A stretch of DNA of 40,380 nucleotides from Candidatus Komeilibacteria bacterium (GTDB lineage Bacteria > Patescibacteriota > Patescibacteriia > UBA1558 > GWA2-36-10), in the NCBI GenBank assembly GCA_018656655.1, contig JABHYW010000040.1:1-40380 (forward strand), given 5' to 3'. Shown in pieces: positions 15,936 through 34,138 of this stretch. Below the pieces are notes generated by a model, which was not told the DNA's origin, ran no database searches, and saw only the letters and a list, made by a program, of their open reading frames with translations. A program made the translations under genes and the position numbers. Each line of letters begins with the position of its first letter. Within the stretch, counting starts at the first letter, position 1.

Positions 15936-15963
15936 GTCCTCCATAGCTTTACGCGAAGGAGAG
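15936..15963. repeat. Family B palindromic element (intergenic rplK-rplA)
   Basis: gtcctccatagctttacgcgaaggagag matches the copies at 27047, 25262, 28785 and 34111. Confidence 0.75.
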
Positions 15964-15971
15964 AAGAATAT

Positions 15972-16397
15972 TTATTTTCCTATTTTAACTCCCATTTGAC
16001 GAGCAGTACCAGCAATTATCTTTTTTGCTTGTTCTACGTCATCGGTATTTAAATCTGGCATTTTAGCTTCTGCAATTTCAGTAAGTTGTGCATCACTTAA
16101 TGTAGCAACTTTTTCTTGCAATGGACTACCAGAACCTTTTTTTAAACTAAGTTTTTTCTTTATCATATCAGATGCCGGGGCAGTCTTAGTAACAAAAGAA
16201 AAACTTCTATCTTCATAAATAGATAATTCTACAGGTACTACTTCTCCCATACGTTCTTTTGTAGCTGCATTAAATTGCGTACAAAAAGCTTGAATATCTA
16301 AACCATGGGGCCCTAAAGCTGTACCAACTGGAGGAGCTGGAGTAGCTTTACCAGCTTGGATTTGTAGCTTAACAATTTGTTTTATTTGTTTTGCCAT
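15972..16397 (-). CDS. rplK: 50S ribosomal protein L11
   Basis: [35 protein letters not shown]; start at MAKQ (16397). Confidence 0.98.
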
Positions 16398-16449
16398 ATT
16401 ATTTATTATTACGAGGTGCAAACGCTCAGCCGACTAGCCAAGCTCCCTC
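16398..16449 (-). promoter_or_regulatory. Putative L1-binding autoregulatory leader upstream of rplK
   Basis: Near-identical copy of 15881-15932, abutting the start codon. Confidence 0.65.
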
Positions 16450-16457
16450 ATTATTAT

Positions 16458-17003
16458 TTATATTTTTTTAATTTGTAAAAAATCTAATTCTACTGGAGTC
16501 TCACGACCAAACATAGAAACTAATACTTTGGCTTTACCACGAGCTTCATCAACTTCGGAAATCTTACCTTCATGATCTTTAAATGGACCATCGGTAATCT
16601 TAACAACTTCATCAACTTCAATATCAACTTTAAATTCTGGTTCTTCAGCACCCATTCTTTGCATTAATTGTTTTATCTCTGCCTCAGAAACAGGAGTAGG
16701 TGTAGTACCAGAACCAACGAAACCAGTTACGTTTGGAGTATTTCTAACTACATACCAAGAAGCGTCAGTTACTACCATAGATACCAAAACATAGCCTGGA
16801 AAAATCTTTTCCTTAACTGTTTTTCTTTTTCCGTTCTTAATTTTAATTTTAGTCTCGGTTGGAATAATAACATCAAAAATCTTATCTTCCATATCCATAG
16901 ATTCAATACGTTGTCTCAAATTACGACAAACGTTTTCTTCATAACCAGAATAAGTATGTAATACATACCACCTTCGACCCTGTTGTGCGGTTTGTTTTGG
17001 CAT
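16458..17003 (-). CDS. nusG: Transcription termination/antitermination factor NusG
   Basis: WYVLHTYSGYE, FPGYVLV, TPNVTGFVG, KOW motif DGPF, FGRETPVEL. Confidence 0.98.
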   Translation of the reverse strand: MPKQTAQQGRRWYVLHTYSGYEENVCRNLRQRIESMDMEDKIFDVIIPTETKIKIKNGKRKTVKEKIFPGYVLVSMVVTDASWYVVRNTPNVTGFVGSGTTPTPVSEAEIKQLMQRMGAEEPEFKVDIEVDEVVKITDGPFKDHEGKISEVDEARGKAKVLVSMFGRETPVELDFLQIKKI

Positions 17004-17020
17004 ATGTTTATATCTTAAAA

Positions 17021-17203
17021 TTATTTAATCAAGCCTTCTATTACTTGGCTAAGACCCAAATCAACTACCCCTAGAAAAATAGCCACTGCAATAGAAACAC
17101 CAATAACCATTAAAGTATGATTAATGGTTGTTTGTCTAGTTGGCCATACTACCTTAGATAGTTCTTCTTTGGCTCCTTTAAAATAGCTTACTATTTTGTT
17201 CAT
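17021..17203 (-). CDS. secE: Preprotein translocase SecE
   Basis: EELSKVVWPT followed by a TM helix; directly upstream of nusG. Confidence 0.96.
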   Translation of the reverse strand: MNKIVSYFKGAKEELSKVVWPTRQTTINHTLMVIGVSIAVAIFLGVVDLGLSQVIEGLIK

Positions 17204-17258
17204 ATTTTTAAAATAAAGGTTTTTTAAAACAGCTCTGACAGCTGTTTATAACGAGATT

Positions 17259-17287
17259 ACTATAGCATAAAAAAATAGCTGAGTCAA
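17259..17287 (-). promoter_or_regulatory. Sigma70 promoter for secE-nusG-rplK-rplA
   Basis: TTGACT-17nt-TATAGT with extended TGn. Confidence 0.6.
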
Positions 17288-17297
17288 GGATTAAACT

Positions 17298-17324
17298 AAA
17301 AAGCCCCGAATTTCGGGGCTTTTT
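17298..17324. terminator. Intrinsic terminator
   Basis: aaaaagccccgaa-t-ttcggggcttttt. Confidence 0.8.
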
Positions 17325-31306: not shown

Positions 31307-31324
31307 AAATATTAATTAATATTA

Positions 31325-32854
31325 TTATTTATTTTCTTCAACTTTTTCTTCTAGCTCTACTAGGTCATCAATGATGGTTTTAAGTTTTTGTTCATCACCG
31401 TCTGAAAGTTCACCACTTTTTTCAATACTAGCTAAAACATCTTTACCTTCAGCTTCCATTCTAGTAAATAATTTTTGCTCAAAGACAGCTAAATTAGCTA
31501 CTGGTACTTTGTCTAAATGACCATTAGCAGCTGCGTAAATAATAGACACTTGCTTAGCTTGTGATAATGGAGCAAATTGTCCCTGTTTTAAAATCTCAGT
31601 AATACGGGCACCACGATCAAGTAATTGTTTAGTAGCATCATCTAAATCTGATCCAAATTGAGCAAAGGCTTCCATTTCTCTATATTGAGCTAAGTCCATC
31701 TTTAATTTACCAGCTACTTTTTTCATAGCTTTCTTCTGAGCAGCAGAACCTACACGAGATACTGAAAGTCCAGTTGATAGAGCTGGCCTAACACCTTTAT
31801 AAAATAAATCTGTTTCTAAGAAAATTTGACCATCGGTAATAGAAATTACGTTGGTTGGAATATAAGCTGAAATATCACCAGCTTGAGTTTCAATAATAGG
31901 AAGAGCTGTTAATGATCCTCCACCCATGGCATCACTCATCTTAGCAGAACGTTCTAATAATCTTGAGTGAACATAGAAAACATCACCAGGATAAGCTTCA
32001 CGTCCAGGAGGTCTCTTTAGAAGTAGAGAAATCTGACGATAGGCTACAGCGTGCTTTGATAAATCATCATATATAACTAATACGTCTTTTCCTTTATCCA
32101 TGAAATATTCTCCCATAGAACATCCAGCGTAAGGAGCAATATAAGATAGAGCGGCTGATTCAGATGCACCAGCTAATACTATAGTAGTGTAATCCATAGC
32201 TCCAGTCTCTTCTAACTTAGCAACGATTCTAGCAATTTTGGATTCTTTTTGACCGATAGCAACATAAATACAAACTACATCCTTGCCCTTTTGATTAATA
32301 ATAGCATCAATAGCTAAGGCAGTTTTACCAGTTTGACGATCACCAATAATAAGCTCACGTTGTCCTTTACCAATCGGAATAATAGCATCAATTACTTTGA
32401 TACCAGTTTCCAATGGTTGAAATACTGACTGACGAGTAATAACACCAGGAGCAATCTTTTCTACTGGATAGTGATCTTTTGATTTAATGGCACCTTTACC
32501 ATCAATGGCTTCGCCAAGTGGGTTTACCACACGGCCAACTACTGCTTCACCAACTGGTACTTCAAGAATACGTTTGGTTCGCTTTACTTTGTCGCCTTCT
32601 TTTAAAGCTGTATATTCACCTAAGATGATAGCACCAACGGCAAATTCTTCTAAGTTTAAAACCACACCGTAGACTTTGTCTCCAGCCTTGGTTTCAAATT
32701 CAAGCATCTCGGAAGCCATGACATCTGATAATCCAGAAACTTTGGCAATACCGTCACCTACTTCGATAATTTCACCGACTGTCTCTTCTTTAACATCTGA
32801 CTGCCAGTCTTCTAGTTGCTTTTGCAAACTTTTTACTAAATGATCGTAAGACAT
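31325..32854 (-). CDS. atpA: ATP synthase F1 alpha
   Basis: [26 protein letters not shown]. Confidence 0.99.
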
Positions 32855-32858
32855 ATTA

Positions 32859-33260
32859 TTAATTACTTAATTGTTTTGCTAAATTGTTTAATTGATGTCT
32901 GATAGACATATCTATAATTTTATCATTATATTTTATTACTGCTCCACCAACAAGATCTTTATCTTCTTCAGTTTTTACTACTACTTCTTGTTTAGTTTTG
33001 GCTTTTACTAAATCACTAATCTTTTTAATTTCAGTTTTATCTAATTCTGCTGGACTAGTTACTTTAGTAGCTACAATACCTTCGTTTAAAAAATGAATAT
33101 TTTCAAGTTCAATTAAAATACTTGGAATCATAGAAACTAAGTAATGTTGACTTAAATAAGCAGAGAAATTAGCAATGACCTTATCTAATTCTTTGCCTTT
33201 CTTATCTTTAGAAGCTTCATATAAAGCTAGGGCTAAAATTTTAACTTGATTCTTTTTCAT
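32859..33260 (-). CDS. atpH: ATP synthase delta (short form)
   Basis: C-terminal OSCP motif [21 protein letters not shown]; position between atpF and atpA. Confidence 0.9.
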
Positions 33261-33290
33261 TTAACTCTTTAATATATATTTATAATTAAA

Positions 33291-33310
33291 TCCTGAGCGA
33301 AGTCGAAGGG
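33291..33310 (+). repeat. Family A core, intergenic, opposite orientation
   Basis: tcctgagcgaagtcgaaggg, abutting the atpF stop. Confidence 0.75.
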
Positions 33311-33805
33311 TTATTTCAAATCTTTTAATACCTTATCAATATACTTTTTATCTAGATCTTTAGAAATTCCAGTAGATAAAATTTTCTCTAAGGCTGTAAC
33401 TACCATGGCAGATACCTCGCTTTTGATTTCAGTAATCATACCATCTTTTTCACTGGCAATCTGTTCTTTGGCTTTCTCAATAAGTTTAGCTACCTCTTCT
33501 TTGGTTTTTACTAAATTGGCTTGCTTGGCATTTTCAGATAACTTTTTGGCTTCTTCCAAAATAGCAGCTGCATCACCCTTAGTAACGATTAGTTTTTCTT
33601 TAACTTCTTTCTCTACTTGCTCCAATCTTTCTTCAGCAGCCTTAGCATCTGATAAGCCTTTGGATATCTCATCATTTCTCTTTTGCATTGTTTTAGTTAA
33701 AGGCTTCAAAGCAAAAAACCACAAAACGGCTACCACTATCAAAAAATTGACTAGTTGAGCTATTAGTAATTTCCAATCGATTCCAAATAATTCTAAAATT
33801 TCCAT
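33311..33805 (-). CDS. atpF: ATP synthase Fo b
   Basis: GIDWKLLIAQLVNF TM segment followed by a coiled coil. Confidence 0.96.
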   Translation of the reverse strand: MEILELFGIDWKLLIAQLVNFLIVVAVLWFFALKPLTKTMQKRNDEISKGLSDAKAAEERLEQVEKEVKEKLIVTKGDAAAILEEAKKLSENAKQANLVKTKEEVAKLIEKAKEQIASEKDGMITEIKSEVSAMVVTALEKILSTGISKDLDKKYIDKVLKDLK

Positions 33806-33869
33806 ATCTATTATTTAAATTAATTGCTTAGTCGTGCCCTCATATATAGAGAGCACTCAAAACTATCAA

Positions 33870-34091
33870 TTATTTGATTGAAAAAGCAATAATCAATGAG
33901 TAAATAGCGATAGCTTCAGCAAAAGCTGATACTAAAAGCATAGGTACTAGGATTTTACCAGCTGATTCTGGATTACGTCCGATTGATTCCATAGCTTTTG
34001 CACCAATCTTACCGATAGCTAGGGCTGGAGCAAAACCACCCACAGCGATAGCAATGGCCTTAGCCATTAAAGTTAAATCTACAACTTCCAT
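33870..34091 (-). CDS. atpE: ATP synthase Fo c (H+-type signature)
   Basis: IGRNPE loop and AFAEAIAIY carboxylate; start at MEVV (34091) behind AAAGGA. Confidence 0.96.
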
Positions 34092-34110
34092 ATGTGTTTT
34101 CCTTTCTTTA

Positions 34111-34138
34111 CCCGTCCGAAGCTTTATGCGAAGGAGGG
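34111..34138. repeat. Family B element upstream of atpE
   Basis: cccgtccgaagctttatgcgaaggaggg. Confidence 0.75.

Follow-up and report, generated by a model that had tools for sequence, protein, structure and literature searches.

A 30-nucleotide hairpin repeat inserted in genes and spacers of a Candidatus Komeilibacteria genome is probably a REP-like miniature mobile element

We analyzed a 40-kb contig (JABHYW010000040.1; 40,380 nucleotides [nt], hereafter the window) from the genome of Candidatus Komeilibacteria bacterium (GCA_018656655.1, here G000), which comprises 779,582 bp (0.78 Mb) in 65 contigs at 32% G+C and is 84% complete, and followed one family of short hairpin repeats, here called family B, through the window, the genome, and other bacteria. 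In the window, family B occurs between the genes for ribosomal proteins L11 and L1, at 2 sites in an open reading frame (ORF) for a UvrD-like helicase, in atpC, and upstream of atpE, in company with a sister family of repetitive extragenic palindromes (REPs) (Table 1). The first-pass annotation had listed 5 copies of the hairpin, with the stems cctcc/ggagg, ccttc/gaagg, and tcatcc/ggatga, and all 5 were found where it had placed them, with all of these stems; the peptides it had read from them are also present, SSFAKASED and PSSRKASKD antisense in the helicase ORF and SSIALAKD in sense in atpC. Comparison with 5 congeners (G001 to G005) identified family B as inserted DNA, present or absent at exact points.

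Table 1. Family-B copies, sister repeats, and adjoining repeats in the window
Feature	Position	Strand	Context
Family-B copy	15933-15964	+	Spacer between L11 and L1 genes (both - strand); 32 nt, 5-nt loop
Family-B copy (helicase site 2)	25259-25289	+	Antisense in UvrD-like helicase / PD-(D/E)XK nuclease ORF 24944-27973 (-); codes PSSRKASKD
Family-B copy (helicase site 1)	27044-27073	+	Antisense in the same UvrD-like helicase ORF; 7-bp stem; codes SSFAKASED
Family-B copy	28785-28814	-	Sense in atpC (ATP synthase epsilon, ORF 28520-28990, -); exactly 30 nt
Family-B copy	34108-34139	+	Adjacent to the atpE (c subunit, - strand) ribosome-binding site, on its upstream side; 32 nt, 5-nt loop, imperfect stem
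Canonical TGTC/CGTC-tagged REP pair, opposite orientation	34206-34233; 34239-34266	+; -	Span 34206-34266
Single canonical TGTC-tagged REP, same sister family	15162-15190	-	Downstream of L1 gene
GCGGAGCG direct repeat	~27026-27046		Units separated by CTA; adjoins the copy at helicase site 1
Perfect 18-nt palindrome (AGCCCTTCG/CGAAGGGCT)	24609-24626		Spacer between two - strand ORFs; not family B

Simple patterns of the core were already in excess in the window. AGC-N5-GCGAAG was found 5 times against 0.07 expected, with 2 of the 5 matches being the 2 strands of an unrelated palindrome (the last row of Table 1), and AGC-N4-GCGAAG was found twice against 0.11 expected; 0 of 100 shuffles reached the observed count of either pattern. 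The first-pass annotation had proposed a covariance model from all genomic copies. A covariance model (R1), applied after an initial profile search, gave 26 matches across the 0.78-Mb genome at a cutoff of E<=1, and E was below 4e-5 for 25 of these.

The unit measures 30 nt with a 4-nt loop and 31-32 nt with a 5-nt loop, and reads from 5' to 3' as a 4-nt tag, a 6-bp stem of free sequence, GAA, GC, a mini-loop, GC, GAA, and the 3' arm, as in the copy between L11 and L1 (CGTG-TCCTCC-ATA-GC-TTTAC-GC-GAA-GGAGAG). The 5' side of the internal loop is GAA, or also GTA, ATA, or AAA, opposite GAA, the GC/GC pairs form a clamp, and the mini-loop is YTYR with its first and last bases paired. We aligned 23 G000 copies, excluding the 2 outer halves of nested pairs and 3 weaker matches. 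In this alignment the arms are 9 nt long with the middle 3 bases (GAA opposite GAA) unpaired, the loop has 4 nt in 16 copies and 5 nt in 7, and the stem begins with AT in 6. The tag is CGTG in 10 of the 23 copies and NNTG in 16, with YTTG elsewhere, and together with the next 2 bases it reads YGTC. The 4 bases before the NNCC part of the stem are TGTC in 9 copies, CGTC in 2, TGCC in 3, TTCC in 2, TGTT in 2, and other sequences in 5; in many copies a GA on the 3' side is paired with the TC of the tag, and the 3' arm is followed by AG or AA in 9.

The pairing of the 2 arms is maintained by compensatory changes. Among the 23 G000 copies, 87.4% of the cells in paired columns can pair, compared with 32-44% when the partner is slid, and two-sided changes were identified at 5 of the 7 outer-helix pairs scored; 0 of 500 shuffles reached the observed score. 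The seventh and outermost of these pairs is mostly unpaired, so the stem has 6 bp, and the inner G-C is swapped for A-T in 3 copies; RNAalifold independently gives the same fold. A second alignment included 82 copies from many phyla picked by the exact 18-mer CCGAAGCYTYRGCGAAGG, a search pattern that fixes the 2 innermost stem pairs and makes them uninformative. Here 94.7% of the cells pair versus 23-52% when slid, the 2 free stem positions are divided between C-G and U-A (33 vs 30) and between G-C and U-A (40 vs 22), and the loop is closed by C-G in 50 copies, U-A in 30, U-G in 2, and C-A in none. Conservation across phyla ends exactly at the edges of the 30-nt unit, with nothing conserved past the 3' arm. 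The structure maintained by compensatory stem changes that the first-pass annotation had described is therefore borne out both within the genome and across phyla, on far more copies than that annotation had. Wobble asymmetry does not single out the folding strand, with G-T versus A-C mismatches at 10 versus 3 in G000 and 17 versus 15 across phyla, and the 2 strands did not differ in folding energy when DNA parameters were used (-2.9 to -6.4 kcal/mol). The heptamer GCGAAGC, present in the Bradyrhizobium repeat described below, is a classic and very stable DNA mini-hairpin, and YTTR loops form two-residue loops in DNA; both would favour a fold of single-stranded DNA.

Empty sites for the window copies were identified among the congeners. 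In atpC, DNA alignment places a 30-nt gap in G002 to G005, and the copy in G001 is diverged and 24 nt long, its stem being ATCC/GGAT as in G000; the G000 copy adds the residues DASSIALAKD to the beta-sandwich domain, where approximately 10 surplus residues are also visible in the Pfam match. Upstream of atpE, the 32-nt copy is found only in G000, and all 5 congeners are empty between CCTTTCT and TGAYAAT. In the L11-L1 spacer, G000 has the 32-nt copy, the copies of G004 and G005 have diverged, and G001 to G003 are empty at exactly the same point. Helicase site 2 has a net gain of 30 nt in G000 only, with 15 amino acids in place of 5 in the 5 congeners. At helicase site 1, the family-B copy and the adjoining GCGGAGCG repeat make up a 45-nt composite insert common to G000, G004, and a genome of another genus (G008, L038) and absent from G002, G003, and G005; G001 has a different palindrome there. 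The element thus behaves as inserted DNA, with empty sites at 4 window copies and inserts of 30-32 nt. The empty atpE and L11-L1 targets do not resemble the stems, so the palindrome arrives with the element, and the same 2 sites rule out an origin of the stems by inverted copying of the flanking target.

Sites outside the window add to the evidence for turnover. A copy at the N-terminus of an exonuclease-like gene is shared with G002, where it has decayed, and is absent from the other 4 congeners, and the L11-L1 copy has decayed in G005. Decay of orthologous copies after insertion indicates that the structure looks kept for propagation and not for the host. In the rpsB leader, all 6 genomes share a hairpin and its left flank and only the apical part differs, being the family-B core in G000 and G003 and an A-rich loop in the others. 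The helicase gene tree (969 ungapped columns, 6 taxa, single gene) is ((G000,G002),G003,(G004,(G005,G001))), and of the 7 sites compared, 4 (the rpsB leader, helicase site 1, atpC, and L11-L1) have presence patterns that do not correspond to any of its splits, so the same sites were gained or cleanly lost more than once. The flanks AAGA to the left and AGAT to the right of the insert recur at atpC, dnaK, and nusA. A universal GA^AR target was considered and rejected; it is valid for one subfamily.

Contigs of 19 DNA runs on seawater or other marine material, dated 2016-2019, cover part of the window (24900-29100) in full, which makes the organism a recurrent marine one. A strain diverged by approximately 1% retains the L11-L1 copy.

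Copies of family B occupy intergenic spacers, the neighbourhood of tRNA genes, an intervening sequence of an rRNA gene, other repeats, and other family-B copies, and they also lie in frame in housekeeping genes. Of the 26 G000 copies, 13 are inside ORFs, 10 in sense and 3 antisense, and 13 are in non-coding DNA. Outside the window, these sites include the C-terminal tails of DnaK, NusA, and S16, an antisense position in ValRS, the N-terminus of the exonuclease-like protein, and the region 5' of rpsB, with gene names read from translations and not from a family search. Nine of the 10 sense copies are read in one frame and encode peptides resembling D-V-S-S-E-A-S-A-K-D-E, and the antisense copies give S-S-F/R/T-A/K-K-A-S. 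The 4-nt loop, which makes a unit of 30 nt, was found in 12 of 13 coding copies versus 8 of 14 non-coding copies, a difference that suggests a length filter.

Association with tRNA genes was frequent, with 8 of the 26 copies lying no more than 100 nt from a tRNA gene (28 tRNA genes were found), where ~0.3 would be expected from tRNA windows that make up ~1% of the genome. In 2 of these copies the 3' end of the tRNA itself makes up part of the stem, and the same arrangement was found at loci L029 and L039 of other genomes. In 2 genera, ~30-65 nt upstream of the intact tRNA-Glu gene, a family-B hairpin directly abuts a duplicated 5' half of tRNA-Glu(CTC) that is identical as far as the anticodon (L031 1500-1575 in G012 and L022 1450-1545 in G009), and the G009 fragment carries another small palindrome. 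The 23S rRNA gene of G014 (L021 690-830) has an insert of ~150 nt with 2 family-B hairpins in opposite orientation, at a position that we take to resemble the helix-45 site of known intervening sequences. Nested copies, with a fixed insertion point between the 5' arm and GAAGC, were identified in G000 within the tail of the S16 gene as well as within a hypothetical ORF, and another in an Omnitrophota genome (L125). In the Armatimonadetes genome G044 (L367, L368), the family-B loop holds the palindrome GTCGCC-TCA-GGCGAC, and nesting is 3 levels deep.

Family B is distributed well beyond G000. We searched 41 genomes of the order, including G000, with R1 and with PF01797 (the Y1 transposase family), and R1 found family B in 29 of them (G000 counted), at 1-52 copies each. 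The exact 18-mer CCGAAGCYTYRGCGAAGG was found at 122 or more loci in one-genome-per-species contigs, a count that by itself proves nothing, since the estimated chance expectation of ~140 in 596 Gb is of the same order; the flanking stem is at least 5 bp in 64 of the 83 matches examined, with the same tag. Hosts among the matches listed include Bradyrhizobium and Mesorhizobium (Alphaproteobacteria), Verrucomicrobia, Acidobacteria, Bacteroidetes, Planctomycetes, Omnitrophota, Elusimicrobia, and several groups of Patescibacteria, and 4 of 5 distant genomes checked harbor 17-36 copies. At least 123 viral contigs have the 18-mer, with a stem of at least 5 bp in 70 of 125 matches. In Bradyrhizobium, family B lies inside a 45-copy repeat, CGTC-ATTGC-GA-GC-GNA-GC-GAA-GCAAT-CCA, at GCGA^AGC, and removing the 30 nt of family B restores this CGTC repeat exactly. 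The common 14-nt core across phyla and viral contigs points to a common recognition machinery.

The closest match to family B is the superfamily of CGTC/TGTC-tagged REPs, and family B may be identical with one of its 4 families (CGTC-1 to CGTC-4). As described by Di Nocera, De Gregorio, and Rocco (2013; PMC3733652), CGTC REPs have CGTC, TGTC, or CCTC tags, an 8-9-bp stem whose first bases are AT, a loop of 4-5 nt, and a CCA tail, occur in several phyla, lie within UvrD/Rep and other repair genes, are not flanked by a transposase gene, and include the Rickettsia repeats RPE-4 and RPE-6. Family B resembles them in being a short multicopy single hairpin with a 4-5-nt loop, in its intragenic copies, notably in UvrD/Rep genes, and in having no transposase gene flanked by the repeats, and the Bradyrhizobium CGTC repeats share its layout of tag, stem, GA(A), GC, small loop, GC, GAA, and stem, including the 3' half (GC-GAA-stem). 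The 5' tag may be of their type; it reads YGTC in 11 of 23 copies, and its TC is paired in many. Family B differs in the 3x3 GAA/GAA mismatch that breaks its arms (the published stem being 8-9 bp), in an AT start of the stem in only 6 of 23 copies, in having no CCA-like tail, and in its YTYR loop; its copies are mostly single or nested and not head-to-head dimers, and its host, an ultra-small marine bacterium, belongs to a phylum and order outside that survey. No prior description of the family-B core was found in the literature searched, although the 4 families of PMC3733652, consulted in abstract and passages, may include it. Two later papers on REPs mention the CGTC work, in the passages searched, only among their references.

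The sister REP family fits the published CGTC description better than family B does. Its units carry a TGTC/CGTC tag ahead of an 8-bp stem (ATYCTGAA, with TTCAGRAT as the other arm), together with a 5-nt loop and a C-rich tail. The family was identified at 8 loci in G000, including 3 places in the window, with similar copies many times in G001.

Other small elements were compared as well. GTAG REPs and the REPIN-RAYT systems (RAYT, REP-associated tyrosine transposase) are like family B in size, in an imperfect single hairpin with a 4-nt 5' tag, in copy number, and in presumed recognition as a single strand, but family B has no GTAG tag (GTAG being just an internal GAAG variant in some copies), no flanking RAYT, and no RAYT match in G000, and half of its copies are intragenic. 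Rickettsia palindromic elements (RPEs) are likewise palindromes that a reduced genome carries in frame within functional genes, and the classic RPE-1 is several times longer than family B. Miniature elements derived from IS200/IS605 (PATEs) also depend on hairpins and share the absence of target duplication and the short target that we would expect for family B. These derivatives have 2 different subterminal hairpins, a cognate TnpA, and a strong replication-strand bias, whereas family B is a single sharp-edged 30-nt hairpin without a Y1/TnpA match in G000. Rfam had no match in the window at gathering thresholds and none on the hairpins of 7 copy-bearing loci at E<=1. Two other candidates were rejected. 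Intrinsic terminators do not fit, since no more than 2 copies out of 26 precede a T run (C30 and C29_11586) and 13 copies are inside ORFs in both orientations, and PARCEL repeats (PMC2996958) are 25-residue tandem repeats and not family B.

The first-pass annotation had connected the hairpin with a protein such as an HUH transposase, and this link was not borne out. PF01797 is not found in G000, RAYT-like genes of the order are flanked by other palindromes, and 15 RAYT-like proteins with the HUH motif from relatives gave no tblastn match in G000 (best E 0.04). In the order, PF01797 matches were identified in 18 of 41 genomes, namely 15 of the 29 hairpin-bearing genomes and 3 of the other 12, a weak correlation, and at the 18 Y1 loci only 2 family-B matches reached E<0.01, at 1.4-2.3 kb from the gene. 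The RAYT-like genes (190-205 amino acids, HUH motif; L079, L083, L085, and L088) are flanked by their own perfect palindromes of the AACCTTCGAGGTT or ACGTCCGACGTTGG type, and a AACCTTCGAGGTT-type palindrome is also inserted in frame at helicase site 1 of G001. REP/RAYT systems thus exist in the order but serve other repeats. Between pairs of copies in G029 and other genomes, we found only small ORFs and RNA-like regions and no candidate enzyme.

We interpret family B as a non-autonomous, REP-like, miniature palindromic mobile element and a sister of the CGTC/TGTC-tagged REPs, a reading to which we assign a probability of roughly 70%. Its copying machinery would recognize the hairpin, most likely as single-stranded DNA, and may be encoded elsewhere than next to the element. 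Insertion probably proceeds without target duplication, in one subfamily between GA and AR. If only copies with an intact stem propagate, covariation would be produced. The length of 30 nt and the open, hydrophilic reading frames would make copies tolerable in protein tails and surface loops, where they may persist as neutral passengers that drift or are lost.

Several results weigh against this interpretation. Folding energies from the nearest-neighbour model do not stand out (z from +0.4 to -1.8), and the GA^AR target fits just 6 of the 23 G000 copies and 5 of the 82 cross-phylum copies. The rpsB leader and helicase site 2 look like the replacement of a stretch and not like a clean insertion. 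PF01797 had no match in G000, which is 84% complete, nor did 8 relatives with at least 7 copies each have a Y1 match, and family B did not flank RAYT-like genes at any of the 18 Y1 loci of relatives scanned with filters off. Contigs of 3 marine DNA runs (X15, X14, and X4; 2016-2019) carry all 5 window copies without an indel, although contigs hide rare variants; in the RNA run X20, none of the copies is covered by a contig. Orientation relative to local GC skew is unbiased (15 vs 11), and this weighs against a lagging-strand mechanism of the IS200/IS605 type, which predicts a bias. Finally, an identical 14-nt core from Patescibacteria to Alphaproteobacteria sits badly with a selfish repeat that has no shared enzyme and is hard to explain.

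The shared core could instead belong to a functional RNA hairpin acting in transcripts as a terminator, an mRNA stabilizer, a processing signal, or a protein-binding site, with a universal RNA-binding factor reading GAA/GAA. The excess of copies near tRNA genes and the 2 that pair with a tRNA 3' end would agree with such a role, as would the T runs after copies C30 and C29 in G000 and after L117, L127, and L140 elsewhere, the GGAGG that some 3' arms place immediately ahead of a start codon (L111, L119, and L131), and the identity of the core across phyla; REPs in general are reported as transcribed in the part of PMC3733652 available. However, copies occur in both orientations relative to the host gene (10 sense and 3 antisense among coding copies), those linked to tRNA genes are mostly in opposite sense, and copies are found inside ORFs of unrelated housekeeping proteins. 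Orthologous copies are decayed or missing in close relatives with no visible replacement, and neither a wobble asymmetry between strands across phyla nor an Rfam match was identified, leaving a role in RNA improbable. A peptide module selected at the protein level (DVSSEASAKDED-like), or chance and low-complexity similarity, is hardly credible. The shared frame of 9 of the 10 sense coding copies and their acidic, serine-rich peptides in Lys/Glu-rich tails speak for the module, but it is refuted by the 13 non-coding copies and by 3 antisense coding copies with a different peptide, and the conservation is at the DNA level, with changes in paired columns, against 0.07-0.11 matches expected from shuffles.

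In a further explanation, the copies spread not by transposition but by short-patch gene conversion or templated repair between hairpins, with the core of another copy overwriting a small hairpin that was there before. The rpsB leader would be such a case, with a hairpin in every congener and a difference in just the apical part, and at a helicase site (site 2) 45 nt replace 15 nt; presence patterns at odds with the gene tree at 4 of 7 sites would also be accommodated. Yet the empty sites at atpC, atpE, and L11-L1 have neither a hairpin nor similarity to the element, nested copies have sharp 30-nt boundaries, and the element is found in many phyla and in viral contigs, so that we rate conversion as quite improbable. 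A bolder version of mobility, which we regard as unlikely but deserving of serious thought, is a pan-bacterial 30-nt single-hairpin replicator with a near-invariant 14-nt core, in which a conserved enzyme acting on single-stranded DNA and borne by the host or by phages would read the GAA/GAA loop, with no dedicated transposase. Its targets would include other repeats, rRNA, the ends of tRNAs, and essential genes, the last entered in frame; if real, it would be the smallest mobile DNA known and would explain CGTC-type REPs without a transposase.

For CGTC-type repeats, a class of small palindromes on record since 2013, no way of moving is known. Family B provides a tractable case, with 26 copies in a 0.78-Mb genome that has no Y1 match and with congeners that differ by clean 30-32-nt insertions. 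It shows how the essential proteins of reduced genomes gain surface inserts of 10 residues, and short conserved "peptide motifs" and hairpins adjacent to tRNA genes may be selfish DNA.

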